Shown piece after piece: positions 5,440 through 37,265 of a stretch of DNA of 37,756 nucleotides; position 1 is the stretch's first letter, and every line of letters begins with the position of its first letter. Below the pieces are notes generated by a model. It was given only the letters and a program-made list of their open reading frames with translations. It was not told where the DNA came from and made no database searches. The stretch comes from Nemertoderma westbladi (Eukaryota > Animalia > Xenacoelomorpha), in contig JAUCBJ010006979.1 of assembly GCA_032718475.1 (NCBI GenBank), forward strand, positions 1-37,756, in the 5' to 3' direction. Position numbers and translations under genes: made by a program.

Positions 5440-5700
5440 TGGGCCCATGTGAAGAATACCAGACTTTCTGCCGTTATATATCTTACTTTACAGTTGCCCC
5501 CATGTGAAGAATCCCAGGTTTTCATCAAAATCACAGGTTACAAAAGGGCTGAATCTAACCAAAACAATAAACGAAATTTAGCCGTATCAAAACGAAACGT
5601 ATCAAAAAGATAAATTAAAAAAAAATAAAAAATCTTCATATATAAAATTCCAATAAAATGTCGACCAAAAAGTGAAATCCTGGTATTATTCACATGGGCG
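5440..5700. mobile_element. Small MITE-like insertion in the left palindrome arm
   Basis: GCCCATGTGAAGAATACCAG ... CTGGTATTATTCACATGGGC inverted ends; the segment is absent from the right arm. Confidence 0.55.
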
Positions 5701-9393: not shown

Positions 9394-10361
9394 TGTTCGC
9401 GGTATTTCAACTTTTCATAACGCGAGTTGAATACTTTTTGTATTTATTTAAAATGATTATTCCGATATCACTACTGGGTGCGGGACCATGGGTTTTGGGC
9501 ACATTCTATGAACTGGGGGCGATTTATGGGCGAACATTGGGGCAACTTACAGGGTATGGGAATAATTTCATATTTATAAGGGCCAGGGGTGGGAGGCAAA
9601 GTTAAGCAGTATTCAGGTTAGCCTGAGTACTATTAGGCCCTGGCCAACTTCCTGCTGCCTGTAGAGGTGGATTTGGTAACGTGCCAGGCCTAAAGGACAA
9701 GGACTGCCCTTAGCGGCCCCTGGCCAACAGCAGTTATTACGAGCCTGAAAAGGACATCGGAACGCCGGCTGCTTGTGCCAGGGATTTGCGACGGGAAACG
9801 ACAGCCCCCTTAGCTAAGCCGTACTGGTTCTCGATGATCGAACCCTTCGGGGTTCGGGAGGGGTGGGACGGATACGCGAATGGGTCCACTGACACGACAG
9901 ACTCCGAGCCAAGCCATACTGGTTCTCAATGATCGATCCCTTCGGGGTTCGGGAGGGGTGGAACGGACATGCGACAGGGTCGACCGACACCGACACTACG
10001 GCACTAAGACCAGGACCGAGGGAAAATCTGGGGAACATTAGGTAGGCTAAAATCTGAGCGAACAGTGGGTAATTAAATAATATACTGTAGGGATTTATAT
10101 TGTCGTGTATAATTATTGTGAATATTTGGTGTATATTGATTTGGGGAAGCCCAATTAATTATCAATCAGGATTCAACAGTAGGAAGTTACATTAAAGAGT
10201 ATATCCAACCAATGCAATTTTTCCTCAACCGCAATCCTGCATTCAAGATATCATTCCTTCTCCACAATCAATATCCGGTGACTGGCCGGGACTCTGTGGT
10301 CTGTAAAGTCACGTCTCCAGCATCGGCGTTTTCCCCCCTGGTGTTTGGGATAACGGCAACA
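9394..10361 (+). repeat. 5' LTR of BEL element (968 bp, 2 hairpin-repeat units)
   Basis: Near-identical to 25966-27457 apart from two internal deletions of 428 and 95 bp. Confidence 0.97.
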
Positions 10362-10434
10362 AAATTGAAAATTAAACGCGGCCAACTTCAACTGGTGGAA
10401 GTTGGGAATTCTACAATACTCTTCAAACAAAAGA

Positions 10435-10607
10435 AATTTCGCACTGTTGTGTCCCTAGGCAAGACACCTTAGACATTAGTGCCTACGCCAACCCAGCGGT
10501 ATAATGGGAACCTGGCTTTGCTGGGGTAATGATAATAAAAGCGCTTTGAGTATGCTGGGCGTAGAAAAGCGCTATATAAATAACCAATATTATTATTATT
10601 ATTATTA
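10435..10607 (+). mobile_element. 5'-truncated SINE (Nin/Deu-type central domain, L2-like 3' tail) inserted in the BEL leader
   Basis: GTTGTGTCCCTAGGCAAGACAC and ACCCAGCGGTATAATGGGAACC core motifs; AAAGCGCTTTGAG...GAAAAGCGCTATATAAAT stem-loop tail; (TAT)n end. Confidence 0.75.
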
Positions 10608-10751
10608 AACTCTCTCTGTGCTTACCCAGCACCCACTACGAGGAAACTCTGGTATTTGAGTTAAGACAAAGTCGTGGTTTAATTAATCAACAAACTCGAT
10701 CTAACCAACTCGTAGTCGGCAGATCACATATTGGAGAGTTGTTAACAGGGA

Positions 10752-10943
10752 ATGGAAGTATCGATCACACCCATTGATATCATCCAAGTTGAGCCAGGAA
10801 TCTGGCACGTTGAAGTGGAAGTACAAGGAACGAACGTCGGACGATTCAGGATTACCGTTCGGGTGGTCCAGGCTGAGTACGATACCTACGAGGAACTATT
10901 CTACGACATCGCATATCTAGCTATCAACGAGGCATTGGAATGA
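10752..10943 (+). CDS. Small 63-aa upstream ORF overlapping the gag start (ATGA)
   Basis: ATG-initiated; alternating hydrophobic beta-strand pattern followed by an acidic helix; stop overlaps the gag ATG by 4 nt. Confidence 0.4.
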   Translation: MEVSITPIDIIQVEPGIWHVEVEVQGTNVGRFRITVRVVQAEYDTYEELFYDIAYLAINEALE

Positions 10944-16553: not shown

Positions 16554-16725
16554 TATAAGATATAAATGTGTCAGTTATTCAAAATGTATTAATCTTATAA
16601 TCATCTAGCACTGTCAGACTACAAACCGCACAATCCTGCAATGACCAGAATACCAACCACCACCACAGTTACACTCAGCAGTCCGCAGCCTATAATAATC
16701 CATCCATCTATCTCACCCATATCTT

Positions 16726-16781
16726 ATATTCCCCCCAGTTTGTAAAATAAACTATCTGTGTTCTCATATTCCCCCCAGTTT
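16726..16781 (-). promoter_or_regulatory. Polypurine tract of the Gypsy element, present twice
   Basis: AAACTGGGGGGAATAT on the minus strand at 16726-16741 (at the LTR junction) and again at 16766-16781. Confidence 0.85.
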
Positions 16782-16842
16782 ATAGTAAACGTATATTTAA
16801 CACCATGTTCAAGTAAATAGCTCCAATCGATATTTAGCTAAT

Positions 16843-19800
16843 CTAAATCCCATATCTCTCCGGTGGTTTCGAATTTCTCCCCGCTCGAGTTACATATCCT
16901 AACTCCGGAACGACCTCAATATCATTTGCATTACTTCTATCATCTATATTGTCGTTGTCATCATCCTCATTGTAATTCACTGTAGTGTCATCATCATTTA
17001 CAGTTTCATCATCTGAACTGTCCGTGTCCATCTCATCTTCAATGTCAATATTCCTGTCAATGTTCCCATTGTATGTCACGTCCAGTTGGTTACCGACGTG
17101 AATCTTTCTAACATCCTGTAGATGATGTCTGATACCCTTTACTACAACCGACCATTCATCTGGAATTTCCTCTACTTCCATTGGTCCTTTCCACCTTTTG
17201 TAGCAACGCCACTTCTGTTCAGGCTTGACGTAAATCAAATCTCCAATTTTATATGGGTTGTCTATTACCTCTCTGTCTTCTAGCAGCTTTGTTATGCCAG
17301 GCAACTTTTCCACTCGTTCACCCATGACTTTCTGAATTGGTGTCTGGTTATCTTTTACTGATGTTCTGTTGTACCAGAATGTAACTTGAACTGGATCTTT
17401 CTTAGATCTTGACGCCCACGCTTTTATAGTTCGATGCATTCTTTCGACGGGATTTCCCCTAGGTCTGTATGCGCACGAAGGCTTCAGTTTCACCTCCCAT
17501 TTATTTAAGAAACTTTTAAACTCATTGCTGCGGAACGCAGGACCATTATCGGGTATAATTTCTTCAGGGGGTCCCCACTCTATAAATATTCGCTGTAGAA
17601 TTTTAACGGCCTGTGCGCTTGTTTTATTAGGCACTTGATTCCAAATAGTAAAATTAGAGTTACAATCCATAACTGTTAGATAACTGTGAGTCCCATACTC
17701 AGAAAAATCAGTAGATAATCTTTGCCAACTCCTATCAGTTTTACAGCTGCCTGGTTTCAGTTTCACTGGTACAGGGTCGATGCTCTTACATTCTTCACAC
17801 TTTCTACAAACCTCTTTAATTGCTTCTTTACAATGGTCTGTTACACTGCCTAGATTCCTGTCTGCTTTACATAGATTCTTTAGTCTATCAGATCCCACAT
17901 GTACCACTTCGTGTAATTCCTTCACTCTTTCCTCAATGTCCGCATAATCTGCGGTTCCATTGGTCTCTGTAACAGTTACTGCAGCTACTTCGACTTCTGG
18001 TTTTTTTAGCCATTTTTTTGGTATACGAGTTAAACAGTCAGCTCGATTCTGCTCTGATGGAACTAGATGCAAAGTTGTTTTTAACTGAAATTCGTCCACA
18101 GTTTTCTTGAGAAGTTCCAATCTTCGTCTTATTAACATTTTAGACATTCCCTTAGTGCGAATGCGGTGTTCATCTTTCAGCATTGCATTTACCCATCCAT
18201 ATACCGGTGCCGAGTCAGTATATAATTGTATTTCTGTTAATTCCCACTGTATTGCCATATTTACCCCTTCAATTAATGCGCTAAGCTCGGCTGAGTTTAT
18301 GTGTTCTGGGTGATCGTTTTTACGTAACCATGATCCATCCTCAGCTGTCTGTCCCCCGATTCTCACCATCGCCCCAATGGCCAAGTTACTAGCGTCAGCC
18401 CAAACTTCGCCACGTTTCGTATCACTTATAGGCCACGAACCACCCACTGGATCTGCTCGTTGCACTCGGTTAACCACCTCAACTAATTTATCTCTAGTTC
18501 CCTTGTCTATTACTGAATCCATTGGAACATTTGCTGCCTGGCGTTGCAGCCAACTCAATGACACTCGCAACCATCCCTCGATCAAATAGTTTCCTCGTAA
18601 TTGTCCTACCACTGATAGCAGTTTTCTATGAGTTAATGGGTTCTCGATCTTTTCTGGGTCTGGAATGTCACTATCTCGTTTCCACTTCCCCCCTTCCACA
18701 GCGACTCCGAGGACTCTGGCCCCACCTTTAATTTCTATTGCTTCCTTGGTTTCAAGTCCGAACTTTTTAAGATGTTGCCTTACGTCATCTGCTGTTACAC
18801 CTGTTTGTAAATCTGCATATATGTCATCCCTAAAACTGTCTGTCGATTCCTTAATTCGATCATTCTGTCCCAGTACTTTTTCTACAATAGTATCCAATAT
18901 TTTGGGTGCCGGGCCCAACCCAAACCCAAGTCTAGTCATGCAGTACCTTTTTCCTTTGTAACTGACTGTTTGGTATGCCTGTAGTGCCGGTGCTATTCTT
19001 ATCTGCATGTACGCCCACTTTAAGTCGATTATTGCTGTATTCTCGCCCATTCTTATCCAGTGCCTTAACTTTTCGTTACTTGCTGCTGCCTCCACCCCTG
19101 GTTGCTTTATTAAGTATTCGTTTAATTCTCTAAAATCCATAATGGGGCGCACTCGATCTTTGCGGGGTTCATTTTTATACATCAGAGGTATCAGTGCCAT
19201 ATAATCACCCTCAAATTCTTGCAACCATCCCTTCTCTATCCACTCTCCTACTCCTTTCTCATACTTGCTACGTAGTTCTGTTGGAATATGATATTCCCGT
19301 ACTGTATTGTTTAGTCTACCTGGTGGAGAGCCAGCTTCGAATTTGTACTCCACTTGCCAATTAGTACCATCGAAAACTGCACAAAAATCGTCTTTATCTA
19401 TTCTTAGTATTGGTTCTGTAGTCGTTTTGGCTACTGCTGATACTGACCATTGTCCCCCTGACCCGACACTTACTTCCATTTTACCGTCGTCTGTTCCTAT
19501 AAATGAAATGCCGTTGCTTTTCTTTATTAAGTCCCACCCATATATCATATTTAATTCTCCTACTATATGATCAACAACCAAGAATTCCCAAACAAACTCC
19601 GGCATCCTGTCAATCTGTAACACAGTACTAACCTTTCCTACCAACTGCGTAGCTGTAGACCCGTCTAACATAGTTATGTTTGATTTATTACCTGGTTCCT
19701 CAAATGTTCCATTAATTCTCGCTGCGAACTTCCGCGATAATATACTCCTGCTACACCCAGAATCGACCAATGCTTCCACAAATTTCCCTCCACAATTCAC

Positions 19801-19881
19801 ATTTTTCGTCGGAAGATCACCGACTTGTCCTCCGGGGAGACGACCGCTGGCACACACGACGCCTCCCCCTATTCGTTTCCC
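16843..19881 (-). CDS. pol: Gypsy Pol (protease, RT, RNase H, integrase), expressed by -1 frameshift
   Basis: Uninterrupted ~1010 codons. Motifs: LVDSG; MDFRELN, IDLKWAYMQI, RLGFGL, FRDD; WADAS, INSAEL, YTDS, NRADCLTR; HEVVH..CEEC, STDF, PDNG, VERMHRTIK. Confidence 0.93.
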   Translation of the reverse strand, partial: GKRIGGGVVCASGRLPGGQVGDLPTKNVNCGGKFVEALVDSGCSRSILSRKFAARINGTFEEPGNKSNITMLDGSTATQLVGKVSTVLQIDRMPEFVWEFLVVDHIVGELNMIYGWDLIKKSNGISFIGTDDGKMEVSVGSGGQWSVSAVAKTTTEPILRIDKDDFCAVFDGTNWQVEYKFEAGSPPGRLNNTVREYHIPTELRSKYEKGVGEWIEKGWLQEFEGDYMALIPLMYKNEPRKDRVRPIMDFRELNEYLIKQPGVEAAASNEKLRHWIRMGENTAIIDLKWAYMQIRIAPALQAYQTVSYKGKRYCMTRLGFGLGPAPKILDTIVEKVLGQNDRIKESTDSFRDDIYADLQTGVTADDVRQHLKKFGLETKEAIEIKGGARVLGVAVEGGKWKRDSDIPDPEKIENPLTHRKLLSVVGQLRGNYLIEGWLRVSLSWLQRQAANVPMDSVIDKGTRDKLVEVVNRVQRADPVGGSWPISDTKRGEVWADASNLAIGAMVRIGGQTAEDGSWLRKNDHPEHINSAELSALIEGVNMAIQWELTEIQLYTDSAPVYGWVNAMLKDEHRIRTKGMSKMLIRRRLELLKKTVDEFQLKTTLHLVPSEQNRADCLTRIPKKWLKKPEVEVAAVTVTETNGTADYADIEERVKELHEVVHVGSDRLKNLCKADRNLGSVTDHCKEAIKEVCRKCEECKSIDPVPVKLKPGSCKTDRSWQRLSTDFSEYGTHSYLTVMDCNSNFTIWNQVPNKTSAQAVKILQRIFIEWGPPEEIIPDNGPAFRSNEFKSFLNKWEVKLKPSCAYRPRGNPVERMHRTIKAWASRSKKDPVQVTFWYNRTSVKDNQTPIQKVMGERVEKLPGITKLLEDREVIDNPYKIGDLIYVKPEQKWRCYKRWKGPMEVEEIPDEWSVVVKGIRHHLQDVRKIHVGNQLDVTYNGNIDRNIDIEDEMDTDSSDDETVNDDDTTVNYNEDDDNDNIDDRSNANDIEVVPELGYVTRAGRNSKPPERYGI
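19834..19881 (-). promoter_or_regulatory. -1 programmed ribosomal frameshift signal
   Basis: G GGA AAC heptamer (19881-19875) in the gag frame, 6-nt spacer, then GGGGAGGCG/CGTCTCCCC stem. Confidence 0.88.
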
Positions 19882-20744
19882 GGCTTCGTCGTCGGGATGA
19901 ATGCCACGCACCCTCTCGCTAAATGGTCAGCACCCCCGCATCTAAAGCAACCCGTGTTCGGTTTAACAGTCCCTGTCGCAGTTCCGCTCTGGTTTCTATT
20001 CCCTAAATTTCCTACGTCGCTGTAGCACTCACGCGCAAAGTGGCCGGGTTTACCGCAACGGAAACATCCTGACCCTCTACCCTGATCTCCTCCCCGTGAC
20101 TCCATACCACTGTCCCGTCGCCAGTTCCCTTTATAATCTCGATTCGAATCCGCAGTTGGACGATAATATCCCTTGTTTCCCTGCCTATCCCCGTATCTCG
20201 CCGCCGCCCCTACCAGCTGAGCTTCGCTTCGCTCCGACTCAGACAATAACCGCCTTGCCTGTGCTAACAGTTTACTCAAATCCGTCTCACCTGCTAACGC
20301 CTTCGTCTCGTTTTGTATTTCATCCGGTAGTCCACTCACGAATTGAACCGCCAATATCTGCTGCGCGCACCTAGATTGAACATCGCCCCCAGTGACCAAC
20401 CCTAATAACCTCTTCAGTTCTGCCAGAAACGTATCTGGCGATTCCTTTTCCTTCAGTCGACGCTGTTTGTATTGCTCGAACGCCGTATATTCGTTGATTG
20501 CGAATGCTGTTATCAATGATCGTTTCAGAATATCATAGTCCGCCTTTTCTGCATCCGATAGCTGACTAATTACGTTGTACGCTGCGCCCTCCATTGACAG
20601 TCGCAAATAGGTTGCCCGCGATTCCTCTTTCAATCCGGCCTCCGCTTTCATCACGTCGTAAGTGTCATCGAACCTCATTAGCCAAGCAGATGGATCACCC
20701 GTACCATTGTACTTTTTAACATAATCCGAAAGTTTCGGAGCCAT
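19869..20744 (-). CDS. gag: Gypsy Gag with two CCHC knuckles
   Basis: ATG at 20744; capsid-like region (RRLKEKESPDTFLAELKRL..QFVSGLP); CFRCGKPGHFAREC and CFRCGGADHLARGC. Confidence 0.93.
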   Translation of the reverse strand: MAPKLSDYVKKYNGTGDPSAWLMRFDDTYDVMKAEAGLKEESRATYLRLSMEGAAYNVISQLSDAEKADYDILKRSLITAFAINEYTAFEQYKQRRLKEKESPDTFLAELKRLLGLVTGGDVQSRCAQQILAVQFVSGLPDEIQNETKALAGETDLSKLLAQARRLLSESERSEAQLVGAAARYGDRQGNKGYYRPTADSNRDYKGNWRRDSGMESRGGDQGRGSGCFRCGKPGHFARECYSDVGNLGNRNQSGTATGTVKPNTGCFRCGGADHLARGCVAFIPTTKPGNE

Positions 20745-20755
20745 CACTGCTGCAA

Positions 20756-20767
20756 GGCCGGTTAGCT
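20756..20767 (-). promoter_or_regulatory. Putative primer-binding site complementary to nt 1-12 of tRNA-Ile(AAU)
   Basis: AGCTAACCGGCC directly follows the 5' LTR; metazoan tRNA-Ile(AAU) begins GGCCGGTTAGCTCAG (from memory). Confidence 0.65.
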
Positions 20768-20947
20768 TATAAGATATAAATGTGTCAGTTATTCAAAATG
20801 TATTAATCTTATAATCATCTAGCACTGTCAGACTACAAACCGCACAATCCTGCAATGACCAGAATACCAACCACCACCACAGTTACACTCAGCAGTCCGC
20901 AGCCTATAATAATCCATCCATCTATCTCACCCATATCTTATACCGCC

Positions 20948-21918
20948 TACAAGCAGATTCCCCACCATCCTACGTCACCGGAGTGGACTGCTTCGGACCG
21001 TTTACGGTCATCAAACGGCGATCCAACATCAAATGCTGGGGAGCCATCTTCACCTGCCTTAGGTCTAGGGCAATCTACCTAGACATTGTGGTAAACCTGA
21101 CGCAACACGCATTCATCAACGCTCTGCGTTGTTTCGTGGCGAACAACGGGACATGTCGCCACATGTATTCCGATAATGGTACAAACTTTGTGGGAGGAGA
21201 ACGAGAACTTAGAGAGGCGATCGAGGGATGGTTTACCGACAACACCGCATCCCAAGTCTGGAAGGAACACCAGATACAGTGGCATTTCCAGACCCCCTTA
21301 GCACCCCATACGAGCGGGGTATGGGAGAAACTGATCGACTTTAGGAGACACCCGGGTAACCCATGACACCCTCCGCACAACATTCTGCGAGATCATGGCT
21401 ACCCTGAACAACCGGCCCATTGTCCCTATCCGCGACGACCCCACAGACCTGGAGCCCCTCACTCCTAACCACCTACTGGGGAAACCCAAAACCCATGTTC
21501 TCCCAGAGACCATGTTTCCGGATCCCAGCGATATCGCGAGACATACAAATTGGAAGAAGGCCCAAGCCTGGCAGCGCATTGGTGGAGAATCTGGGCCCAG
21601 GAATATCTCATAACCCTCCGGACCAGGAGGAAGTGGAACAACACCTACAGGAATGTTGCAGTTGGCGACATGGTATTAGTAAAAGAAGATCTCAAAGACC
21701 GCGTCCACTGGCCTGTGGCGCGAGTCGTGACCATACACCCGAGCAAAGACGGACTTGCGAGGACTGTGACGATACGTACGGCAAAGGGCCACTACCAACG
21801 CCCTATCCAGAAGCTGTGCCTTCTTGAAGGCAATGACAGTGGTGATTCTACGAGAGGTGATAAGTTCCCTACTACGGATCCTGCTGCGGACATTGGTGAC
21901 AATGATAAACCCGTTTAA
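20948..21918 (+). pseudogene. BEL integrase core and C-terminal (DUF5641-like) domain
   Basis: GVDCFGP, FTCLRSRAIYL, YSDNGTNFVG, GVWEKLI, LNNRPI, LTPNHLL, WWRIWAQEYL..L..R.KW, WPVARV, RPIQKLCLL; deletion/frameshifts near 21335 and 21565. Confidence 0.95.
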
Positions 21919-22187
21919 ACCCTTCTCATCCTGTTGACAAACTTTAAACTGTGATTTACTGACAATGAAAATGGACCCCCCTTAAACCAACTGTAACCAC
22001 GCAATGGTATTTGTGTTTCCTCGTGTGTTATGTGGAGTCCAGCGTCACCCTGCAGATGTTTCGACTGACGCAGGGTCGTTTATGTATTGTTTACCCTGAT
22101 TTTGGTCATCGGGACCAATGATATTGGATTATTGGAAATGGTAAAGATTTGAAGTGGAATTCATTGTATCCATTGTAGTATGTTATG

Positions 22188-22612
22188 TTGTCCGTTGCGT
22201 GCGCAGTTCGGGGCGTAGGCGGTGTAACGAGTCCAGCTGTAGATCCCGGATTGCCGCGCAACACCCCCTCTATCCCGTTATTCTGGTGGGTCCATGGTGC
22301 ATCCACATGACTTCGACGACAGGGGGTTTTATGTTCTCAGTCGCGTTATTCTGGTGGGACTGTTGCGTGGATTTTGGGGCGTAGGCGGTGTAACGAGTCC
22401 AGCTGTAGATCCCAGAATGTTGCGTAACCCCATCCCACATGACTTCGTTGGCTGAGCTTTATGTTGTTGGGAGTATTATTCTGGTGGGTCCCTGGTGCAT
22501 TCCACGTGACTTCACTCCCAGGGTCTTCATTGTCCGTTACGTGTGCAGTTTGGGGCGTAGGCGGTGTAACGAGTCCAGCTGTAGATCCCAGATTGCCGCG
22601 TAACACCCCTTT
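22188..22612 (+). repeat. Modular tandem repeat in the BEL pol-accessory intergenic region
   Basis: Identical 38-mer GGGGCGTAGGCGGTGTAACGAGTCCAGCTGTAGATCCC at 22210, 22376 and 22552, interleaved with TTATTCTGGTGGG x3 and CCAC(A/G)TGACTTC x3. Confidence 0.9.
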
Positions 22613-23180
22613 CACAACAAAAATTTACCAAAGAAGATGATTGAATGTAGTTGGAAATGATGAAAAGAAACAGACAACTCTACTATAAACCGAATGATGA
22701 CGCGTATGATGATGAAAATGTAATGATGCGCACCCTGGTGCTGCGCTTATAACAAATGATGATAGCCGGGGGGCTATAACCCCAATGATGACGTGGAAAT
22801 AAATGAAATGTGAAATAAATGTGAAATAAATGAATAAATGGTGGAACTAAATGATGAAATATGTGTTGAAATAATGAAATGTGAAGTGAAATAATAATGA
22901 GAAATGGAAAAAGACAAAAAAAAAATGTATAAAATGTATTAATAAAGAATTGGAAAAAGAAGAGGACATAAAAAGTCATAAAACTGGTTGGATATTAATG
23001 TATAGCTATAGTAACTGTAAATGCTGAATGTATTAGCAATAAGATGGTAGATGCCTATATAGCAATGTTATTTAATAAACTGAATTAAAATTAAACTGAA
23101 TTATTCTGCAATCACTATAGTTTCAGACTTTCTGGACTTATAATTAATTGATCTAATTTGCAACGGACATAATCGTAAAT

Positions 23181-25787
23181 ATGGACCCAAATCGCCAAAT
23201 TATCGGCGAATTACGTAATACGATAGATCTACTGGAATATCCGCAACCTGGATCCCCTAACTTTGATACAAATTGGAACGCCCTGATAAATGAGAACGTG
23301 CGAGTCGTTAAATTCACCGGGCGAGAGGGACCGGACTCCAAGAATCTACGAGCCCTCCGGTTGGCCGATGCTAGTACGAGACTGAAAACAACTCGGAACG
23401 CAAAGGCCACCGGAGAGGACGAGATGTCGTACTGGGATACGTTCCGGCAAAGCGTCTACAAATCCCGATGTCTGATATACGACAACGAAGGAAACGCGAC
23501 GCCTACCTCAAAAGCGATTACGTTGGCGAGATGTCAAAGTTTCGTCGACGATAAGAGTACGTACCTCGCCCACTGGAGAAACCTGTCGGAGTGTACGGCG
23601 ACGCTACGAGAGGAACGTATATCGATCATCCAGAATCGCGACGACTACCAGGAAAAGTACGGGGCGAAAGAATACGGTCGATCCTTGGTCGTCGTCCTCG
23701 GAACCCTGGACGGTTTGGTATTGGTGTGTCGAATATTCCTGACACCCAGGCAGGAAGTGCAGGCAGCCGGAGCGATCTGGTTACTACCTCCGGAAGTCCA
23801 AAAGATCCTCTTCGACTTCGACATCATTAAAATTGGGTCGGATATAAAGGCAGACGTCCGGAACGACTACGCGAACGCTCCTTTAGGAAGAGACCGTTGA
23901 GACGACCTCAACGCCCTTAGTCATTGCGTCGACACCCAAACGCTATTAGCCTGGTTACGATTCGCCGAGTTCATGCGAGGTTTCCGCGAGGTGAGACCGA
24001 CGAAATCCGGGATCGGCTACCTCGCCGTGCTAAACGGCGGCATCGACTTCAAACCTCAGAAATTCCGGGATTATAATAAAATATATGATGGATACCCGGG
24101 ATTAGAAATAAAGAGCGAGCGAGAGGGTCGATGGAAGGACGTTGAGAGAAAGTGGACGTTACACCAAAGGTTGGAGAATCCAGATCGACGGAGCTACATC
24201 TACGTCGTTATGGAATCATACACCGTCGCTAAGTTTATATGTAAAACTCTCGACAACCTCATTACGGCGGTTCCTCTTTCCTTCGTCGACTATGACTGGA
24301 ACGAGGTTATAAACCACGCGTTTAAAGCGGTCGAGAACATTACACCGGGAGAGACGAAAACGCTCACCGTTATCGATTCCTGGGACAAGAAAGGAACCTT
24401 ACAACATCCCTACGATTACCGATCTTCTCGGCGCGGAGGAGCCTCTGATTTCTTCGGAAGGGGAAGAACTATGGCTACAGGAGGGCGTTCTATTAACCAC
24501 CCCAAAGCGACAACTCGAGCCGGAAGCCGCGTACGGACCGGCTGCCAAACGGGTTGCCTCCGCCGAGCCTGCGACGGAAGCGGGCGCTTCCTTCCCACGC
24601 GGCTCCGGTAGCCCTGCGAGGGAGGTAGCCACTACCTCCGCATTGAGCGACTTCGGTGACATATGCCAAAGGTTATCCCCATATCCTTTCCCGGGTGGCG
24701 AAGAGTGGTCTTTGGAGATTCCGAGTACCAGCAATCAACGGTCCCGCTCAGCGATACTGGTTGAAAAAGGTCCCAGCGCTGCGCCGACTCCCGACGATCT
24801 CCTCGGTATCCCTCCGTCGAAAACCCCGGCACCTCTTCGCCGACCAGTGGTGGCTACTACACCTTCCGTTCCTCAGGATCCTATGCGATTAACCCGTTGG
24901 TACCCGAGCAAACCGAATGGATCCACCGTCAGAAACGGTCGTCCGAGTTGAGACCGGCAGGACACAAAGAAGGTTATCGGAGCGAGAACCTACTACGCAA
25001 AAGCCCAGCCTTTCGCGGGCTACCGGCCACTGCGAATATTCAAAAGAGCGATCGACGACTCGAGTACTACGTCGGCATTCCGATTCCAATATTCCCCGGT
25101 CGAGAGATGCAGCTGGAGGTGTGCGGTAACTGCGGTTCGGAGCAGTGCCCACGTGGTAGTAGAAATCGGGTTACCGATTCGTGTCTCCAGCTCATCGGGA
25201 TACTTTATTGCCCATACTGTGCGACATCGGGCCACGACGTTTCTGTCTGTCCGATCCTATATAACCTCTGCACTACGTGCGGGTTCCGTGGACATTCCGC
25301 TAGCCCCCGCTGCTATATCAAATGTCCTACTAAAGACGTTACCGCTATGGGAAATATGGTCATGTTTGAAACCTACGCAAACAGCCACATAAGGACCAAG
25401 GTTCGGAGAAACGCTCGGAATATCGCGCAGGAGATGCAGATGGCGTGCGGGTATTTCTCCTTCCCGGAACGCCTCCACACGTCGGCCACGCTACCTTTCC
25501 ATTACATGGATCTGTTGCTGAGCGCCGGATTATTCGGCCCATTCGAAGTCATTAGACGCTTATACTCGTATAAAGAGGAGTTCGGTGACGGAGAGTGGTT
25601 CCTAGAGGCGCGCAACACCGAGTTGGAAAGACGAACCGATATGATCCCGATGCCATCGAAAGGAAGAGCCGCCAGGAGACAAGCCGAAGCGTTGCTCACG
25701 ATGGATGTTGACGCTCCCCTTCCAGCTCTAGCGATCGATGAGAGTCGACGGGCGAAGAGGAGAAAGGCGTATCAAAGAAAGAAATAG
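23181..25787 (+). pseudogene. BEL accessory ORF, copy B (~869 codons): DEDDy/WRN-like 3'-5' exonuclease, Pro-rich linker, triple zinc knuckle, basic tail
   Basis: ExoI-like IYDNE (23481-23489); LPPEVQKIL.D.DIIKIGSDIKAD (ExoII); VDTQ; GIGYLA...GIDFK; ExoIII-like YVVME (24201-24215); knuckles CPYCATSGHDVSVC and CTTCGFRGHSASPRC. One in-frame stop (23898) and two mutually compensating frameshifts (~24400, ~24920). Confidence 0.8.
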
Positions 25788-25965
25788 TGGACCGGGATAT
25801 TCCAGGAACATTTATTGAACATTTATTTTTATACACATATATATCTATAAACTCTAGGCCAAATTAATTAAGACTATGCAATATTAAATTTGGGTTTTTT
25901 ATATTGGGAATGACCTACGCAAACTCAATCTACCGATAGACCTCACGAAGGTCATTGGGGGGGAC

Positions 25966-27457
25966 TGTTCGCGGTATTTCAACTTTTCATAACGCGAGTT
26001 GAATATTTTTTGTATTTATTTAAAATGATTATTCCGATATCACTACTGGGTGCGGGACCATGGGTTTTGGGCACATTCTATGAACTGGGGGCGATTTATG
26101 GGCGAACATTGGGGCAACTTACAGGGTATGGGAATAATTTCATATTTATAAGGGCCAGGGGTGGGAGGCAAAGTTAAGCAGTATTCAGGTTAGCCTGAGT
26201 ACTATTAGGCCCTGGCCAACTTCCTGCTGCCTGTAGAGGTGGATTTGGTAACGCGCCAGGCCTAAAGGACAAGGACTGCCCTTAGCGGCCCCTGGCCAAC
26301 AGCAGTTATTACGAGCCTGAAAAGGACATCGGAACGCCGGCTGCTTGCGCCAGGGATTCGCGACGGGAAACGACAGCCCCCTTAGCTAAGCCGTACTGGT
26401 TCTCGATGACCGATCCCTTCGGGGTTCGCGAGGGGTGGGACGGACATGCGAAAGGGTGGCCGACTAACAGAGGACGGGTTTGACGAGGACTGCCCTTAGC
26501 GGTCTCTGGTCAACAGCAGTTATTACGAGCCTGAAAAGGACATCGGAACGCCGGCTGCTTGTACCAGGGATTTGCGATGGGAACCGACGACAGACCCCTT
26601 AGCTAAGCCGTACTGGTTCTCGATGATCGATCCCTTCGGGGTTCGTGAGGGGTGGGACGGACATGCGACGGGGTCGAAAGACAAAGGACTGGACGCTACT
26701 GGCCTACCGACTGTTCGGAGCAGTTTCTCGGCTGCCGAAGCGACTACGAGCCTGAATAAGGACTCGGAAAGCCTAGGTGGTTGGGTCTCTGCGATGAACC
26801 GACGGACCCCTAGCCAAGCCGTACTGGTTCTCGATGATCGAACCCTTCGGGGTTCGGGAGGGGTGGGACGGATACGCGAACGGGTCCACCGACATGACAG
26901 ACTCCTAGCCAAGCCGTACTGGTTCTCGATGATCGATCCCTTCGGGGATCGGGAGGGGTGGGACGGATAAGCGACAGAGTCTACCGACTGGACCGACCCT
27001 TAGCCAAGCCGTGCTGGTTCTCGATGATCGATCCCTTCGGGGTTCGGGAGGGGTGGAACGGACACGCGACAGGGTCGACCGACACCGACACTACGGCACT
27101 AAGACCAGGACCAAGGGAAAATCTGGGGAACATTAGGTAGGCTAAAATCTGAGCGAACAGTGGGTAATTAAATAATATACTGTAGGGATTTATATTGTCG
27201 TGTATAATTATTGTGAATATTTGGTGTATATTGATTTGGGGAAGCCCAATTAATTATCAATCAGGGATTCAACTGTAGGAAGTTACATTAAAGAGTATAT
27301 CCAACCAATGCAATTTTTCCTCAACCGCAATCCTGCATTCAAGATATCATTCCTTCTCCACAATCAATATCCGGTGACTGGCCGGGACTCTGTGGTCTGT
27401 AAAGTCACGTCTCCAGCATCGGCGTTTTCCCCCCTGGTGTTTGGGATAACGGCAACA
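25966..27457 (+). repeat. 3' LTR of BEL element (1492 bp, 5 hairpin-repeat units)
   Basis: Follows the PPT; ~68-bp core starts at 26383, 26600, 26811, 26906 and 27001. Confidence 0.97.
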
Positions 27458-27462
27458 TGTAG

Positions 27463-29349
27463 CAGCCCTCCCAGCCAAAAAAATCAAGAAAAAAAAGGAA
27501 AAAAGGATTTCATATTTTCAAAAATAAAGGAAAAAAAGGATAGGATGCAGTTTAAAAAAAAGGAAATAAAGATAGGATGCAGTTCAAAAAAAAGGAAAAA
27601 AAGGATAGGATACAATTAAAAAAAATGGAAAAACTGAATAGATATTATCTTTACAAAAATAATACTGTAGTAAACATTATGTCTTTGTGCTGTTTCTTGA
27701 TTTATTTTATTAACATTACTGAGTGTATATACTATGAAGAATCCCATTAAGAAACTGTTAATGAAAGTTAAGAAATATAAACACAGAGGAAAGAGAACAA
27801 CAGCAATGGCAATATAATTAATATTAATTATAGGTAATACATTAATATTATTAATATAATTATACTACACAGATATTTTCACCTTTTTTGCCTACAGTAG
27901 TTATCAGAGATGGTCGAGCTCCGCCGATTGATGGTCATTGATAGAGGTTTATCAAACGCACAAAAAAGTTATATAAAACCTTTGGTACGGATTTCCGGCT
28001 ATATCCAGGGGAAAATGGACGCAATTAACAGCTGATTACGAGCAAAAATGAAACTGTATCCGTGTTATAGACTTTCTTTTATTGTTTTGGTTCGAATAGA
28101 CTGCCACTGCAACCTGTTCCTTTCCCTAAATTGAAAATCATCATTGTTGATTCTCCAAGGCGGGTTTTGCGTCAATTATAATAAATCACACGCTAAAAAT
28201 GTAGCTGTGGAGAGAACTTTAATATACATATTTTATACACAGATTCCACACACTTCAGCGCCAAAACGCACTCAGCACGAGTCACCATATCAAGAGGGGG
28301 CAGTGAATGGGGGATAAGTGTTTGCTTGGATACGGTTATAGCAGGTTGTATTTCTAAACAGTCTAGATTATTCTCACTCGATGAAGCAGACAGAGGAGCG
28401 CTAGAAGATAAAATAGGTTGTTTGCTAATGATAAGCCGGGGAACGCCAGCCATTGACTTGATGTTCTTAACATGTGCTGGAGCTCGATGGTGCTGGTGTA
28501 TTGCAGAGATTCCACCTGACTTTATTGATATAGTCTTACGACATGGTATACAAAATGTTAAATGATTATCTTCTTTCACAGAACGGAAGACTTGTTCGAC
28601 TTTCAGGTGGGGTTCAGTGGGTAAACTCAAGGAGTTCCATTCAGTTCGCCACCTTGACATCATGCGAATTCGGAACAAATTAAAATAAATCAACAGGCAA
28701 AAATATATAATAGTGATACTAAGCACCAAGCGAAGGCAACAACTATAAACTTCCAGATAGGCACTATCTACTATAGAATGACAGGGATACGTAACATGTG
28801 CAGTGCTAATTAGTTACATCGGTATAGTTAAGTATGATTGCAGATAACAGGAAAATCACTTGTTCACGTATGTAATAGAGGATAGAGCTGTATCTGCCAT
28901 TTGCCAATTAATTTAATATTTATGACTATGGCAGTATGGTAATTGTAAAGGTAACGATACCGGTACATTGTTATATTAGTTTATTACCAAGGAGTATGCA
29001 GTATGGTAATTGTAAAGGTAACGGTACTACAGTACAATACTGATAGTATATAGTAAGTACTGAAACCATCATATGGAACTACAGTCAGACAGTGGTACAG
29101 TAGGCCTAGGGTACCGGTATTTGATTAGTCTGCAAGACCTGTCCAGCTATCTCCCCGCTGCCCTGTAGTGAATAGAACATGTTATTGTTACACTTACTGC
29201 CGGCTATTTTCTGAACTAAAAAAAGGAAAAAAAGGTGTGAAAATGGACAAAAAAAAAGGAAAAAAGGAAACATTCTAAAAAAAAGGTAAAAAAGGAAACG
29301 TTCTAAAAAAAAGGAGAAAAAAGGAAAAAAGGAAACTCTGGGAGGCCTG
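27463..29349 (-). mobile_element. Internally deleted hAT-like DNA transposon with 6-bp TSD
   Basis: 12-bp TIRs CAGCCCTCCCAG / CTGGGAGGCCTG (11/12 match); ATGTAG on both sides (27457-27462, 29350-29355); AAAAAAGG subterminal repeats at both ends. Confidence 0.75.
28225..28665 (-). pseudogene. N-terminal fragment of a hAT-type transposase (BED-like zinc finger)
   Basis: FCIPCRKTISIKSGGISAIHQHHRAPAH followed by VTRAECVLALKCV; no catalytic domain remains. Confidence 0.7.
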
Positions 29350-29488: not shown

Positions 29489-30066
29489 TTACCGAGTCTC
29501 CCCACTACGGATACATTTGTGGCGCTTTACATGATGTCGGTGGGAGAAACATTTCCCGCATGTATCGCAGCTAAACGGCCGTTCACCTGTATGTGATCTC
29601 TTGTGGCGCATTAGATTGCTACTCTCCGTAAATTCCTTCCCACACGTGTCGCACACGAACGGACGCTCTCCGGAATGCGTCCGCTTGTGCGAGGTTAGGT
29701 GGCCTAGTCGAGAGAAACGTTTCTGGCACTCATTGCAGTTGTACAGTCTCTCCCCATTGTGGGTCCGCTTGTGCTCGGTTAGGTTGCTTAGTCGAGAGAA
29801 TCGTTTGTTACAGATGCCGCATTGGTAAGGACGCTCTCCGGTGTGGATCCGTTGGTGTCTAATTAGGTCGCAGTTATATGCGAACGTCTTATCACAAGTA
29901 TCACAGCTGAGCGGCTTCTCATTGCTGCGGCTTCCTTTCATAATGTCCTGCGGTTGAATCCCAGAGGGACCAGGTTGGTCGAAGGAATTATTCATACTTC
30001 CCGGTGTTACGTCATCATCGGAAGCGAGCATGTCTGGATCATCAGGGGATGGTTGAGATTGGTCGC
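29489..30066 (-). CDS. Last exon of a host C2H2 zinc-finger gene (4 C2H2 + 1 C2HC fingers)
   Basis: Five fingers with TGERP-type linkers; acceptor TTTTCTCTAG before 30066 (phase 1). Confidence 0.9.
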
Positions 30067-30448
30067 CTAGAGAAAATAATGGCGTAGATTGCAAATGTAG
30101 AATATTGGAAACGAGAATAATTGAAGTAATTGATGTAATAATTAGTCAATAGAACTTGCTAATTACTGTAGTTTTAAATTCATATATGTAAATAAATAAG
30201 ATTTTCGATTCGACATTGTAAATTAATACGTGTGAGGTTTGATACTTAAATTACTAAAAAAACATAAAATATAAAATAAGCACCATTAATTACTGATACT
30301 GACTGAAATATTATAACCTGTAAAGGGATATTAGAAAATATTGCAGCACTGATTAATGTGATTATGGAGTGTCTCGGAAAAACGGAATATTTTAAGTGAT
30401 AGACGCAATAGTTAGGACTTATTTATAAGACAGCGATTCAGATATGAA

Positions 30449-30899
30449 CTCTGGAGTCCCGAATAGACGGGGTGGGTGGAAAAATTTTATTATGCTAATA
30501 GTCGGGGTGGCTGGAATAAACGTCGTGGGTGGAAAATTTAGGCCTACTTACTTAACATACAGTATAGGCGTACAGGTACAGTAGTATCTACGGCTACCGG
30601 TGGTATACTCGGCACACGTTGTTTTCTTTCACTTTCAAATCTAAATTATTATGAGAATAAACGTTTATTTACTTAATAAACGTTTATCGTTTATAAACGT
30701 TTATAAACGTTTAATAAACGTTTATAAACGTTTATTTTCTTTTTAGAATAAACGTTTATTTACTCATAATAAAAAATGTACTAATTTTTTTTAGAAAAAC
30801 TTAATAGTCGGGGTGTCTGGAATAAGAGAATTGTGGGTGGATTTTTTTACAAAAAATAATAGCCGTGTCGCCTCGCCCCGTCTATTCGGGACTCCAGAG
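30449..30899. mobile_element. Tc1/mariner (pogo-like) MITE in the zinc-finger gene intron
   Basis: 24-bp TIRs CTCTGGAGTCCCGAATAGACGGGG; right flank TA, left flank AA; internal ATAAACGTTTAT palindromic repeats. Confidence 0.85.
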
Positions 30900-31250
30900 T
30901 AATCGCAATAACTTGTGCGACGCAGAATGAATTCCCTTGTATTTGTATTTCTTCATCTGGATAATAGAGTCCAGCTATTTCTCTGACAAAGCTAAAAATG
31001 GGATGTCTCTATTCTGGAGTATTGTTTGCAATTCGGCGAGTTTGGGAAATAGGCTTCGTATATTATATTTGTTATTTGGTGAGAAAGGCTTCAGGCTAGA
31101 TTGAATTTAATTAAACCAGATAAAAACCCTAAAAAACAAAAACTAAATTCAGAACTATCATAACTGTCACTATAAATAAACAATTACTCTGACCAGTTTG
31201 GGGGCAATACGGACTAAACGATGTTTACAATACAAATAATAGTAACTCAC

Positions 31251-32320: not shown

Positions 32321-33449
32321 CTGTTGAAGATTTAATATAGGCCTAATGAGCTAGGTGTAGGACTGTAGGTGCTAGGTAATACAGTAATACTGTAATATGC
32401 AAGGCCTATAAAAGAAAGGCTGTGCAGCCGACTGCAGACTGGTACGTCCTGACAATTGAGGGCCTAGACATTTATTAAGACGTAGGCCTATACAGGTACT
32501 GTATAAGAACAAATTACATCAACTTCAAAAAAAAAATTTCATCTGTTCATGTCTACGTTCTACGTAGGACTGTTGCTCCTATGCTCTAAGAGCAAAGAGG
32601 GTCGGGATGAGACAGCGGGGTTTGGGAGAGGTTTTGGGTGCGGTGAGGCGGCGGCTTCAGTTTGGTCTCCTTCGGGCGACCTCTCTGTGTCTCCGGGGTG
32701 GTAGGAGGCCGTGGCGGGGCCTCGGGTTTGGGGATGGGGCGGGGATTCGGGGTGTTGACCCAGATATGTACTGATTGCATATCTGTTTCTTTATTGTAAA
32801 TATTTATTGTTAACCTGTGCTTCAATCTTAATTATTCTACTTAATTAATTTGTGATCATTTGAGCTTCGCCAGATTTTATATTTTATTTTATTAATGGAA
32901 TAATAAATATTAGTTGTGTGTATTTTGCCTGTATATAATAAATATAAATAATTTTATCTACGTAGGACTGTAGGATTAAAGGCACAAATTGAACTTACAC
33001 TTAAAACAAAACTACTATATTTAAAGCAACAGTATTCTGAATTTCAATTTAGATAATAATGTTCAGTTATCATTCATACAGTATGCGTACCTGTGACAAA
33101 AGGAGCAGGTTACAGTGGCGGTGTTTTCTAACCAAAACAGTAAACTAAACTAGATTACTTAATTAACGGAAAGGAGCAGGTTACAGTGGCGGGCTTTTTA
33201 ACCAAACAAATAAACAATATCTCAATAACATAGGTTACTTCATACTTACAATCTTATTTTTGCAATACGAAAATACCATATGAACTATAACTTAATGTTA
33301 TACTGTAATTTAGATAAAACCATTTTATTTCTTCGACAATAACCCCCCCCCCCCCCCCCCCCCTTATTATTACAGTATTACTGAGTCCACTGTATGCATA
33401 AAGTTTTCGGTCTGCCCCAACCAAAAATTTTGACCATGGACCACCACTG

Positions 33450-34472
33450 ACTGACTAGAGGAAGTCGCTAGGAAAGAGGGGAGGGAGGCAGCAGGTAGAG
33501 AGGCAGATATAAGGGGAGGGGAATATGATTTTGAGGCCCAAGATTTGGATGAGTTGAGGTGGGGATTGGAGGCCTCGGGTGAGTTTCGGCTAGGGATGAG
33601 GTGGATTGGATGGAAGAGATACCGATACAGTCAACATCTGGACTGCAGGGAATGCCGATACCTGGGGGGACCGAGGGCGACTTTGGGAGGAAGAGACCGA
33701 GAGCGATGGAGGGGTGGAGGGTTACGGGCGAGTACCAGGCCGGGAAGGGACATGGTGGATCAACCAGGATCCCGGGCTTGGAACCGCTTGTGGCAGAGGA
33801 AGTAGAGGAGGACGAGTTCGGAGAGATGCCGCCGATAGCAGATAGAGAGGATCGGCCGGCCGGACACGGTCTGGGTGTACGGGAGAGTGGTGACAGCCAG
33901 CGGGGCGAGAGCCTTCTGGGACGCACCCGGCAAGCGAGCCTGGGAGCACAGGGAGCCGTCGTCCGGCAAACACGATTCGGCTAGGCGAGCAACCAGGGGT
34001 GGCACCACAAGTAGTATTTGGGGAGACGATGCCGAGGGAAGAGGATGGCATCGACATGGGTAGGGACGATAAGGTGGAAATGTTGATGTATCAACGGCTC
34101 CATAGACCCAGGAGGCTACGCGGAGCCAAGGATGAGTGTGACAGACAGTGATAGACGGTTGCGACTACTGTGGGAGATTAACCCATCAGCAGAAGAATTG
34201 TCTGTATCGTTACCAAACAGCCAAAAGGGGGCGACATGTCTATATTGTCACGAGTCTACCGATAGAATGGGCGCATGCCCGAGGCTGCACCATAGGTGTA
34301 CGAAGTGTAAGTTTAGGGGGCATTTTGAGCGCCAGTGCGACTGGATCGACAATGAGGAGAAGTTCCGTATTTACGAGGACTGGGCCGACGTCGGAGTCAT
34401 GAATAGGCAAAGGATGAAGGCCCAGAGGAGTTCCGGTGGGGGTTTTTCAACATCACCAGGAGATTACTAAGA
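33450..34472 (+). pseudogene. Degenerate accessory ORF, copy C (linker and triple zinc-knuckle module), 5' part
   Basis: CDYCGRLTHQQKNC, CLYC.....RMGACPRLHHRCTKCKFRGHFERQC...YEDWADVG..R.R....WGFF across frameshifts; collinear with copies A and B. Confidence 0.7.
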
Positions 34473-34480
34473 GGAGACTA

Positions 34481-36653
34481 CAGGCCCGTATCGTGCGGGG
34501 GGGCTTTGGGGGCACTGCCCCCCCAGACAAGTCCCACTGCCCCCGCAGACATGTCTTGTTCACTCGTCTTGTTCACAATTAATTTAAGTTGACAGTGTTG
34601 ACCCCAGTGATCAATATTATTGGATACACATTGATACACTTATAATAGGAGGATACACACTTCTACACACTGGTGGCATTGCCTGACTCCCTACCATCCC
34701 ATTTTGGTCCAATAATACTACATGACATTAACCTACCTACATGTAAATTACTAACAGTACCCGAAAGCTCCAGGTTCTCTCATTGGCTACCAGGGCGGAG
34801 GGGTTGTTTGTCTAATTGTCTGCAATTTGGGAAATTTGGGAAAAGCTTGCAGCTAAAAGGCTAGGCGCTGAGGGTTGCTTGCGCTGGTATCCATATCTAT
34901 AATTTGTTGTAACTTAACCTTAACCATATTATACCTGAAGTGGGTCCTTAGCACAGCACGTGACATAAACTTATGTAAGTGCCAACTCGAAAGAAATATA
35001 AGCAAAATCTAAGCAGATATCCCTTGATCACTTTACACCTAGAGGCAGTCTGGAATATTGCAGTCGATCTTTAAGACCTCAGAAAAAGTTTAAATGACAC
35101 AGCTAATACTACTACTACTTCTAGGATCGGCATGCTGCATTGCAGCTGCATTTTTAAGAATGCTGTGCCGGCTTGTCAACAAAATTGCACCGCCACAACT
35201 CCCTATCACCCATGACATTTGCTAGATCATCCGCATCTTTAAGGCCAGTGTCCTTTAAGATGCGTCTCAAGAAAGTCATGGGCTGTCCACCATGCTTATT
35301 CACTCCATGAGGCTGCCAAAGTACAAGATTATGCACTGGCTGGTCCTCACGGCGAAAGCAATGTCCTGCAAAGCGGAGGCATTTTGTTCTAGTGTCAAGC
35401 TTGGGGGAACCAATGAGACACCTCCAATGTTATATAGTGTCTGGTTGGAGATGTGTGCATTGTACTTGACACAATGAACTTGGCGTAGCATTCTTGTGAA
35501 TGTGCTATCCAGAGATTTGGTGTCCTCAGCAGTTAGAGCCCAGCATGGACTCCCGTAGAGGAGTACTGGAACTACTGCTGCTCTAAATAATCGGACCTTA
35601 AGTTTCCGATTAATTCTCGGTGACTTCCAAATCCTGGAAAGCCTATTCAAGGCTGCCCATGCCTTTCCCTTACGTATTCGAAGGTCCTCACCTGACTTCC
35701 GGATCCATGATCCCAGGTAACAGAAGTCGTCCACATGCTCAAGCATACCATCCTTTGAGCTTATGCTCATCCGATCAGAGACTTGCTGAGGACTTTCAAA
35801 GTTAACTGTCAGAATTTTGGTCTTTCTGGAGTTAATAAAAAGACCAACACTAGAAGCAGCATGTTCTAATGAGCTGAGGAGCCGTTGGGCTCCCTCTAAT
35901 GATTCTGAGAGTACTCCTAAGTCATCAGCAAAGTCTAGATCAGTTAGGTACTTGGCAGGATTTCCTCGACTTCTGGAGCCAGTAGGTGGAGTTATCATCA
36001 CCCCATCATCATTATGATGATCTAAGGACATGCGTAGAACATAGTCAACCACAATAATGAACAAGAATGGTGCAAGTGTGTCTCCTTGGAGGACGCCCCA
36101 TAACACTTCAAATGGTTCTGTGTCACCGTCAACAGTAGACACAAATGTTGTCGAACCATCGTCTAGTACAATGGTCTAGTACAATTCTGCCAAGTTTCCG
36201 CTTTAACGGATTAAAAGCAAAGAAATGGGACGACATTTATTGTTTAGACAAGTAGCCATCTAGCAGGAAGACTGTTGAACTGTTGGTGTCAAAAGTCGCT
36301 AAATAATGTCAAGTTTTGGACATATTTATGCCTACAAATTTTCAATTCGACAGCTTTAAATCTGACAAAGTTATTTTAAAAAGTTAAAGAATGTTACGTT
36401 AATTAAATCGTTACGTCAACAACTAGATATTTGCCATTATTGACATACTCCAACAGTGTCAGTTCGCCAAGGCTCCGCCAATTTCGTGGCTCGCCCCATA
36501 CACCGTTCAACAATATTGATTATATTTATGTACTAAATTAACTCTCACTTTGTTGTATGCTCCCCAAATCCCAGTAATGGGTTTGCCCCCCCAGATTTGT
36601 CCTCTGCCCCCCCCCCCCCCCCCCCCAGATATTATGATCACCATACGGGCCTG
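34481..36653. mobile_element. Non-autonomous hAT element with 8-bp TSD, carrying a LINE fragment
   Basis: 11-bp TIRs CAGGCCCGTAT / ATACGGGCCTG; TSD GGAGACTA at 34473-34480 and 36654-36661; TGCCCCCC subterminal motifs. Confidence 0.92.
35103..36165 (-). mobile_element. 5'-truncated RTE-like non-LTR retrotransposon (RT C-terminal half)
   Basis: GVLQGDTLAPFLF, LDFADDL, FCYLGSWI, KVRLFRAAVVPVLLYG; frameshift near 35370; (AGT)n 3' tail at ~35103-35119. Confidence 0.9.
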
Positions 36654-36661
36654 GGAGACTA

Positions 36662-37265
36662 GCATTCACATATCAGGAGGTAGCGACAGCGGCATCACAT
36701 GGAGGGGTTATTAACACCCAAAGATATCTCGACAGATGGTCGCCAGAACAGGATGGAATTCAGGAACTTTCTGGCGGAGCATGTGCCGCGTGGAATGAAG
36801 ATGATCATGTGGGACGCTACCAGAGGGAAGCAGGAGGGGCACTCAGTGGGACCGCCGGCGAAACGATACCGTGAAATGATAGCGCCCGCGCCCAAGGATC
36901 CAACTACGGGGCTTGGCAAGACGGTATCAGTGCGGATGAGTAGCCTGAAGGGTAAACACGAGGAAAGAAAACGCCCGAGACAGGACGATGATAGGGGCAA
37001 GGAGATGAGTAATAATGATGGTAATAATTAATATATTGAATTCAGTAATTATGTATTAATAGGTATTAATTATTTATGTATGTATTTTACAGTATATCAA
37101 TCGGTGCTGAATTAGTATCACATAGAACTTGGATTTAGGGTAGTAGATAGGCCTACTGTTTGTAATTTATTTCACCAATTAATTTGGTAGCGGTTGGTTT
37201 GTATTATTTTATTATTGTAATTATTAAGTACACCTTGTACGGAGTTAGAGCACACAAGGTCATTG
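36662..37265 (+). pseudogene. 3' continuation of accessory ORF copy C and its BEL-like 3' UTR
   Basis: Joined across the hAT TSD it reads RRLAFTYQEV (compare TLPFHYMDL in copy B); basic tail RKRPR; ends in stem-loop ACCTTGT/ACAAGGT plus AAGGTCATTG, as at 25948-25957. Confidence 0.55.

Follow-up and report, generated by a model that had tools for sequence, protein, structure and literature searches.

Retrotransposons that encode a DEDDy exonuclease have been described in rotifers, where long terminal repeat (LTR) elements and Terminons carry a third open reading frame (ORF3) of this type, presented in the available text of PMC5408684 as the first such report in retrotransposons and covered further in PMC6431247, PMC5718144 and PMC6338049. 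The same text notes that EXD1 and Maelstrom kept binding after the loss of catalysis (PMC5408684). Among proteins that join an exonuclease to further RNA-binding parts, the Trypanosoma brucei RNase D, TbRND, has CCHC fingers that are reported to bind RNA and raise cleavage (PMC7797062), and Egalitarian is reported to bind RNA through its exonuclease domain plus a linker and a domain at the C terminus (10.1101/2025.08.03.668247). Descriptions of BEL/Pao retrotransposons list gag, pol and, in some cases, env. Here, we analyzed a 37,756-bp stretch of the Nemertoderma westbladi contig JAUCBJ010006979.1 (the window), in which a decayed sequence at 33453-37031, copy C, led us to a new class of accessory gene in these elements. 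The gene is conserved and vertically inherited, lies between pol and the 3' LTR, and combines an N-terminal DEDDy nuclease or pseudonuclease with an uncatalogued C-terminal zinc domain. Copy C is itself defunct, a fragment that matters solely as a pointer to this gene family.

The gene resembles ORF3 of the bdelloid elements Juno, Vesta and Athena/Terminon, which likewise places a DEDDy-type exonuclease after pol, has no membrane segment and has a so far hypothetical function (PMC5408684). Unlike the BEL/Pao gene, those ORFs, compared here by their published description only, belong to rotifer-specific LTR lineages; the available text describes their invariant residues as intact and mentions no C-terminal triple-knuckle domain (PMC5408684). 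The role of retrotransposon DEDDy ORF3s, a question raised in that paper, becomes testable because catalytic and dead versions coexist naturally in the BEL/Pao family and dozens of its ORFs are intact. TbRND shares the order of exonuclease, linker and C-terminal CCHC fingers (PMC7797062; PDB 7c45, 7c42), and differs in being a cellular gene with four extended, independent fingers and no helical extension, as far as the available text describes it. We found no report of a BEL/Pao exonuclease ORF or of this zinc domain in a literature search beyond whose reach lay Repbase, Dfam, GyDB and the majority of subscription journals, where an earlier annotation may exist, and the word "exonuclease" does not occur in the main texts of PMC3118150, PMC13524379 and PMC2774666.

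Three copies of the module in the window

A preliminary description of the window had recognized three related modules, copies A, B and C, each with three zinc knuckles followed by a helical extension that it could assign to no named domain. The motifs it named in copy C lie where it placed them, spread over three reading frames: CDYC at 34160, CLYC at 34237, CPRL at 34276, CTKC at 34297, YEDW at 34372, WGFF at 34437 and LAFTY at 36659, in frames 2, 1, 1, 1, 1, 3 and 2, respectively. The parts of the three copies are as follows (E, expect value; aa, amino acids).

1078-1443, plus strand: probable C-terminal half of the copy A exonuclease, 25-26% identical to B over ~125 aa (E 0.005-0.019)
1900-2256, plus strand: triple-knuckle/helix module of copy A, in the open ORF 1003-2841
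9394-27457, plus strand: complete BEL/Pao element holding copy B, with LTRs at 9394-10361 and 25966-27457 and a 5-bp duplication
23181-24296, plus strand: DEDDy-type exonuclease domain of copy B, with one internal stop (59.2 bits, E 1e-19, profile without window rows)
25116-25514, plus strand: triple-knuckle/helix module of copy B, in the final ORF, ahead of the polypurine tract and 3' LTR
33453-37031, plus strand: copy C, a frameshifted, 5'-truncated third homologue of A and B, split by a DNA element
33453-34159, plus strand: decayed low-complexity stretch 5' of the module, likely the linker, covered by many related contigs
34160-34201, plus strand: knuckle 1 of copy C, C-x2-C-x4-H-x4-C, in a frame other than that of knuckles 2 and 3
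34237-34338, plus strand: knuckles 2 and 3 of copy C, joined by C-x6-C, found by tblastn and profile
34354-34463, plus strand: helical extension (E..A..G...R) and GF motif of copy C, broken by frameshift, found with an extension-only profile
36662-37031, plus strand: remainder of copy C, a LAFTY-like motif and an ORF for a basic low-complexity tail, in a region covered by related contigs
37245-37265, plus strand: short, suggestive match to element B immediately ahead of its polypurine tract (blastn E 0.12 over 21 columns); neither polypurine tract nor LTR follows

Copy C matched copy B with an E value of 3e-6 and copy A with 4e-5 by tblastn within the window. A self-blastn of the window gave no match among the three at the DNA level, and the protein identity of C to A was 23-27%. 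With a 93-row profile from which the window rows were left out, C and B each scored 50.7 bits and A 37.5, compared to -3.2 for the next match in the window and 0.6 for the best of 20 shuffles; the protein rows of this profile had first been found with an A/B/C profile, so its independence is incomplete. Inserting an X at each break lifted copy C to 72.8 bits, up from 52.8. Of its pieces, those of knuckle 1 and WGFF, both chosen by eye, narrowly beat all 500 random pieces (59.8 versus 59.6 and 61.0 versus 60.9). Knuckle 2 of copy C has another residue in place of its His. An extension-only profile found the copy C pieces as the two best matches in the window and in the right order, at weak scores of 4.7 and -3.7 bits (shuffles reached up to 1.9 bits). 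Copy C is almost certainly a member of the family and, judged by homology, very probably once stood within a BEL element.

Contigs covering 33370-34600 at 85-100% identity numbered 618, 798 and 757 in three sequencing runs from two studies, and the copy C lineage therefore appears to be multi-copy in its host. Two contigs, from one run, diverge in sequence before 33453, where copy C is likely truncated. The sequence directly before it (33099-33449) is a high-copy repeat fragment with a poly-C run and a DNA-transposon-like end whose partner was not found within the window.

Element B has the LTR ends (TG...CA) and short target duplication of a BEL/Pao element and the domain order gag (DUF1759), protease, reverse transcriptase (RT), Peptidase_A17, integrase and DUF5641. 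Its gag-pol (10877-21918) is interrupted by a gypsy-type element at 16551-20942. In the copy B exonuclease the acidic positions are present, with an ExoI D-x-E at 23481, the ExoII D and an ExoIII Y-x3-E at 24201.

A zinc module fused to an exonuclease downstream of BEL pol

AlphaFold predicted the ~150-residue module as one compact domain, with a mean local confidence (pLDDT) of 94.1 and a global confidence (pTM) of 0.87; run on copy A as a single sequence, it gave a pLDDT of 32. Pfam and PDB searches returned neither a family nor a structure match, which bears out the view that the extension belongs to no domain that can be named, and the predicted fold presents a small, confidently modelled target for structure determination. 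A scan of 27 module proteins assigned 26 to no Pfam family and left one with a sub-threshold zf-CCHC; cluster annotation of 30 module proteins read "hypothetical protein" or was nameless throughout. Atlas scores were all below 0.9. DUF8363 (PF27939) is an Atlas lead only (0.87 and 0.80) and gave no match in the Pfam copy searched, whose newest models date from 2025.

The A/B/C profile matched 66 of 1.84 billion proteins. The whole module was present in 30 of these and the extension in 29, so the matches go beyond generic knuckles and include the downstream motif; the other 36 lacked the module, and those scanned were mostly generic knuckles. A word-index protein search returned nothing with copy A or with the module alignment and two proteins with a sub-alignment, which is weak evidence. 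The spacing between knuckles 2 and 3 was invariant as C-x6-C in a 33-row alignment, so the proposed C-P-x5-C holds as to length; the proline is common (71 of 86 matched rows) and not fixed.

We compared the module with known zinc-knuckle proteins. Nanos, suggested earlier as a loose resemblance, has tandem CCHC sites joined by C-P-x-L and was the top Foldseek row, at an E value of 2.6 and a template modelling (TM) score of 0.16 over 47 columns and with no sequence match; Nanos has two sites with other spacings, and zf-nanos membership fails. Air2/ZCCHC7, the second suggestion, and Lin28 share consecutive CCHC knuckles (E 1e-3 and 3e-6, respectively, with a 12-row profile), and these knuckles-only matches vanish with a 96-row module profile; neither has the extension, and Air2/ZCCHC7, whose family we reject for the module, reached Atlas scores of 0.76-0.80. 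TbRND matched in its knuckles alone (E 3.5e-5; by structure E 4.5, TM 0.19) and is an analogue, not a family member. The Cys-His array of BEL Gag does not belong to the family either (hhalign probability 1.2%, -8.6 bits).

A degenerate DNA pattern identified at least 120 metagenome loci, which together with the 30 whole-module proteins supports the claim of an abundant family. Flanks were available for 80, and 71 of these hold the module; the counts that follow refer to these listed loci. BEL proteins lay 5' on the same strand in 40 of the 71 by tblastn. Where the sequence before the ORF spanned 500 bp or more, BEL pol preceded the ORF on the same strand in 38 of 46 loci, and where it spanned 4 kb or more, in 24 of 26; two of the eight tblastn-negative loci have DUF5641 upstream by Pfam, giving 40 of 46. 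The linkage to BEL elements that had been put forward is thereby borne out. Gypsy and RTE proteins of the window matched none of the 71 loci. The rotifer Juno and Vesta lineages are of the Ty3/gypsy type. Terminal repeats were present in 6 of 22 long loci; the others are contigs of about element length. Viral contigs yielded no relatives of the module protein P0008 and no match to the DNA pattern.

In 53 of the 55 ORFs long enough to contain one, a DEDDy exonuclease domain precedes the module, and a linker of 53-458 aa separates the two. In the protein set this N-terminal domain was seen in 12 of the 30 whole-module proteins. Its profile matches EXD2 and the WRN exonuclease, with EXD2 as the best PDB sequence match (E 2.6e-10, and 1e-11 for a profile with 46 loci) and the WRN exonuclease at 2e-5; Pfam DNA_pol_A_exo1 matched weakly in 2 of 12 exonuclease-domain proteins. 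The ExoI D-x-E, ExoII D and ExoIII Y-x3-D/E positions of EXD2, the WRN exonuclease and Egalitarian are present. Unlike the retrotransposon protein, these three are cellular; they leave the zinc module unmatched, and the C-terminal half of the exonuclease domain aligns poorly with them. We conclude that the N-terminal domain is a DEDDy 3'-5' nuclease or pseudonuclease, with activity predicted from sequence. The preliminary description did not mention this fusion, of which its module is the C-terminal part.

Some members depart from this plan. Two BEL-linked module ORFs (L059 and L047) showed no exonuclease domain and may hold another N-terminal domain. Three accessory ORFs of 1400-1600 aa (L005, L043 and L051) have ~900 unannotated residues before the exonuclease domain. 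A divergent subgroup (L008, L032, L072 and L016) is changed at its catalytic positions and showed no extension behind the knuckles, and protein P0002 has two tandem whole modules after a degenerate exonuclease domain.

Inheritance, selection and proposed function

We compared RT distances with those of the accessory domains in the 22 loci that had both domains, out of 26 with an RT. RT distance correlated with exonuclease distance (rho 0.85) and module distance (rho 0.86), a level reached in none of 2000 permutations, among RTs down to 27% identity; since kin share all three distances, these values indicate joint inheritance and not co-adaptation. The window RT sits on a long branch and is at most 32% identical to the RTs of the loci. 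To count catalytic residues, 91 sequences were aligned and reduced to 60 non-redundant ones, of which nine were removed for gaps. The acidic tetrad was intact in 29 of the resulting 51 rows, as it is in copy B, and lost in 22. The ten non-catalytic rows present in the RT tree form one clade (support 100/98). Ratios of non-synonymous to synonymous substitution (dN/dS) were 0.03-0.30 for the exonuclease (18 pairs) and 0.02-0.43 for the module (27 pairs), pairs from the dead clade included. Both domains are thus under purifying selection even in the clade without catalytic residues.

We propose that copy C is the remnant of a BEL/Pao accessory gene whose product joins a DEDDy 3'-5' exonuclease to a triple zinc-knuckle/helix module through a variable linker, and, on balance, that the intact protein binds RNA and blunts small-RNA silencing by the host. 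By analogy with the CCHC fingers of TbRND, the module would hold RNA upstream of its 3' end. Catalytic members would then trim or destroy the held RNA, and dead-nuclease members would only bind and sequester it, much as the Egalitarian exonuclease domain binds RNA. CCHC knuckles bind single-stranded nucleic acid. Because both domains were kept after catalytic loss, RNA binding is probably the core job, and we regard binding of nucleic acid, probably RNA, by the protein as quite likely. As targets, host small RNAs or silencing ribonucleoproteins are a real possibility that falls short of an even chance, and the element's own RNA is a lesser one. A small-RNA suppressor is favored: trimming or sequestering suits an accessory gene that can be dispensed with and that does its work whether or not it catalyzes. 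More doubtful still is the fullest form of this proposal: a deep BEL/Pao lineage carrying a silencing suppressor in which a 3'-5' exonuclease joined to a new three-zinc RNA-binding fold captures and trims Piwi-interacting or small interfering RNAs of the host, with one nuclease-dead clade acting as an RNA sponge.

A number of observations weigh against this proposal. The evidence is equally compatible with small-RNA and own-RNA targets, and WRN-type DEDDy domains act on DNA too. The dN/dS pairs were filtered from 1035 for each domain (dN below 0.35, dS 0.1-2), which lowers the ratios, and they are not independent. In the locus survey, the pattern demanded C-x6-C, LH and RGH, so the conservation of these features in the loci is circular; these pattern-picked loci also fed the iterations of the exonuclease profile; many loci share few contig-name prefixes and may stem from few hosts; and gypsy and RTE were the only other element classes queried. 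No BEL protein was found upstream in 6 of the 46 loci (three with just 513-671 bp upstream and three with broken ORFs), L012 has 10 kb upstream without a BEL match, and the exonuclease went undetected in 2 of the 55 long ORFs. In the window, neither pol nor an LTR adjoins copy C, the family profile detected no exonuclease in its 33453-34159 stretch (best score -3.3 bits), the exonuclease half of copy A scored a weak -2.4 bits with that profile, and the pol of copy A would fall outside the window. The LAFTY piece, which had been listed as a matching motif, does not rise above chance, with 107 of 500 random pieces scoring as well.

Several other readings of the intact protein account for part of these data. 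It may be a cis-acting RNA chaperone. Recognizing a structure in the RNA of its own element, much as Egalitarian does with localization signals, it would then protect, carry or package that RNA, or else trim the 3' end or the primer. The persistence under purifying selection of a ten-member clade in which catalysis is dispensable fits such a role, as do the tight co-divergence of the ORF with RT, the weak third PDB match of the exonuclease profile to Egalitarian (E 0.58) and the proposal of 3'-end processing of element RNA for the rotifer ORF3 (PMC5408684); yet BEL Gag already carries its own knuckle array for packaging, and the BEL/Pao overview PMC3118150 describes no such gene in its available text, so many of these elements may manage without it. 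We consider the chaperone possible, on a tentative footing. A DNA-acting exonuclease like EXD2 or WRN, trimming complementary DNA (cDNA) ends or removing cytoplasmic cDNA while the zinc module binds single-stranded DNA, is unlikely. Its closest solved relatives are indeed EXD2 and the WRN exonuclease, basic tails in 27 of 34 ORFs could be nuclear signals, and CCHC knuckles can bind single-stranded DNA, but integrase already processes ends and a dead-nuclease clade that persists under selection is a poor fit to a trimming job. We rank the small-RNA suppressor first, itself short of an even chance, the own-RNA chaperone close behind, and the DNA-acting role lower.

The ORF occupies the position of env, env-like genes are known in BEL/Pao (available text of PMC13524379), and all three window copies are damaged, as would be seen if ORF3 were env-like or a host gene that was captured and now decays as a passenger. 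Hydrophobic segments in just 2 of 50 long ORFs, the exonuclease homology and purifying selection led us to reject an env identity, and with vertical inheritance across RTs as low as 27% identical they make either version very improbable. Least credible of all is that copy C is not homologous and represents a stray array of Gag knuckles or a set of generic zinc knuckles, the domain being pattern-matching noise. It does match the BEL Gag knuckles of the window (E 3e-4, tblastn), the module is absent from over half of the 66 profile hits, and the extension by itself contributes little in C; the score of C far above its shuffles, that of the Gag knuckles far below, the negligible hhalign probability, the collinear knuckle-1 and GF pieces and the confident single-domain model refute this identity.

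The insertion in copy C and neighboring elements

The DNA element that splits copy C comprises the following parts.

34473-34480: left 8-bp target-site duplication, perfect
34481-36653: non-autonomous hAT-like DNA element of 2173 bp with perfect 11-bp inverted ends
35105-36169, minus strand: high-copy RTE-like non-LTR RT fragment of 1065 bp nested in the DNA element (Pfam RVT_1 2e-10, DUF6451)
36654-36661: right 8-bp target-site duplication, perfect

The insertion that had been delimited at 34481-36661 is real; the insert proper ends at 36653, and the remainder is one duplication. Its 8-bp target duplication and short inverted ends are hallmarks of hAT elements, and 8-bp duplications are made by other superfamilies too. 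The ends thus fit the earlier hAT assignment, a label that rests on them alone because no transposase ORF was seen: none was present among ORFs of at least 100 aa, shorter ones lying outside the scan, and the sole ORF of that length is the nested RT fragment, which we class as RTE-like. Seventeen contigs from one run have unlike flanks before the left end at 34481. The joint 35104-36170, which bypasses the RT fragment, occurred in 7, 3 and 1 contigs from three runs; the listed joints did not include an empty site for the DNA element.

By its elements, the window is repeat-rich eukaryotic DNA, probably animal. Within element B, the gypsy-type LTR element at 16551-20942 lies on the minus strand in the BEL integrase region, with 178-bp repeats (99%) and open gag and pol. 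The 3' LTR of element B is ~520 bp longer than the 5' LTR through extra copies of a 95-bp repeat unit (26268-27090). Between pol and the accessory ORF is a 1.2-kb spacer (21919-23156) with no long plus-strand ORF; it contains three 80-bp repeats and an AT-rich stretch and may hold a promoter or splice acceptor. Elsewhere, 5058-8105 is a long inverted-repeat, foldback-like element of ~3 kb, 28193-28813 (minus strand) is a fragment that we take to resemble the start of a BED-finger transposase and that has no Pfam match, and 29489-30145 (minus strand) is an ORF for a C2H2 zinc-finger array. At 30448-30900, a small element is bounded by perfect inverted ends of 25 bp and contains AT-rich tandem repeats.

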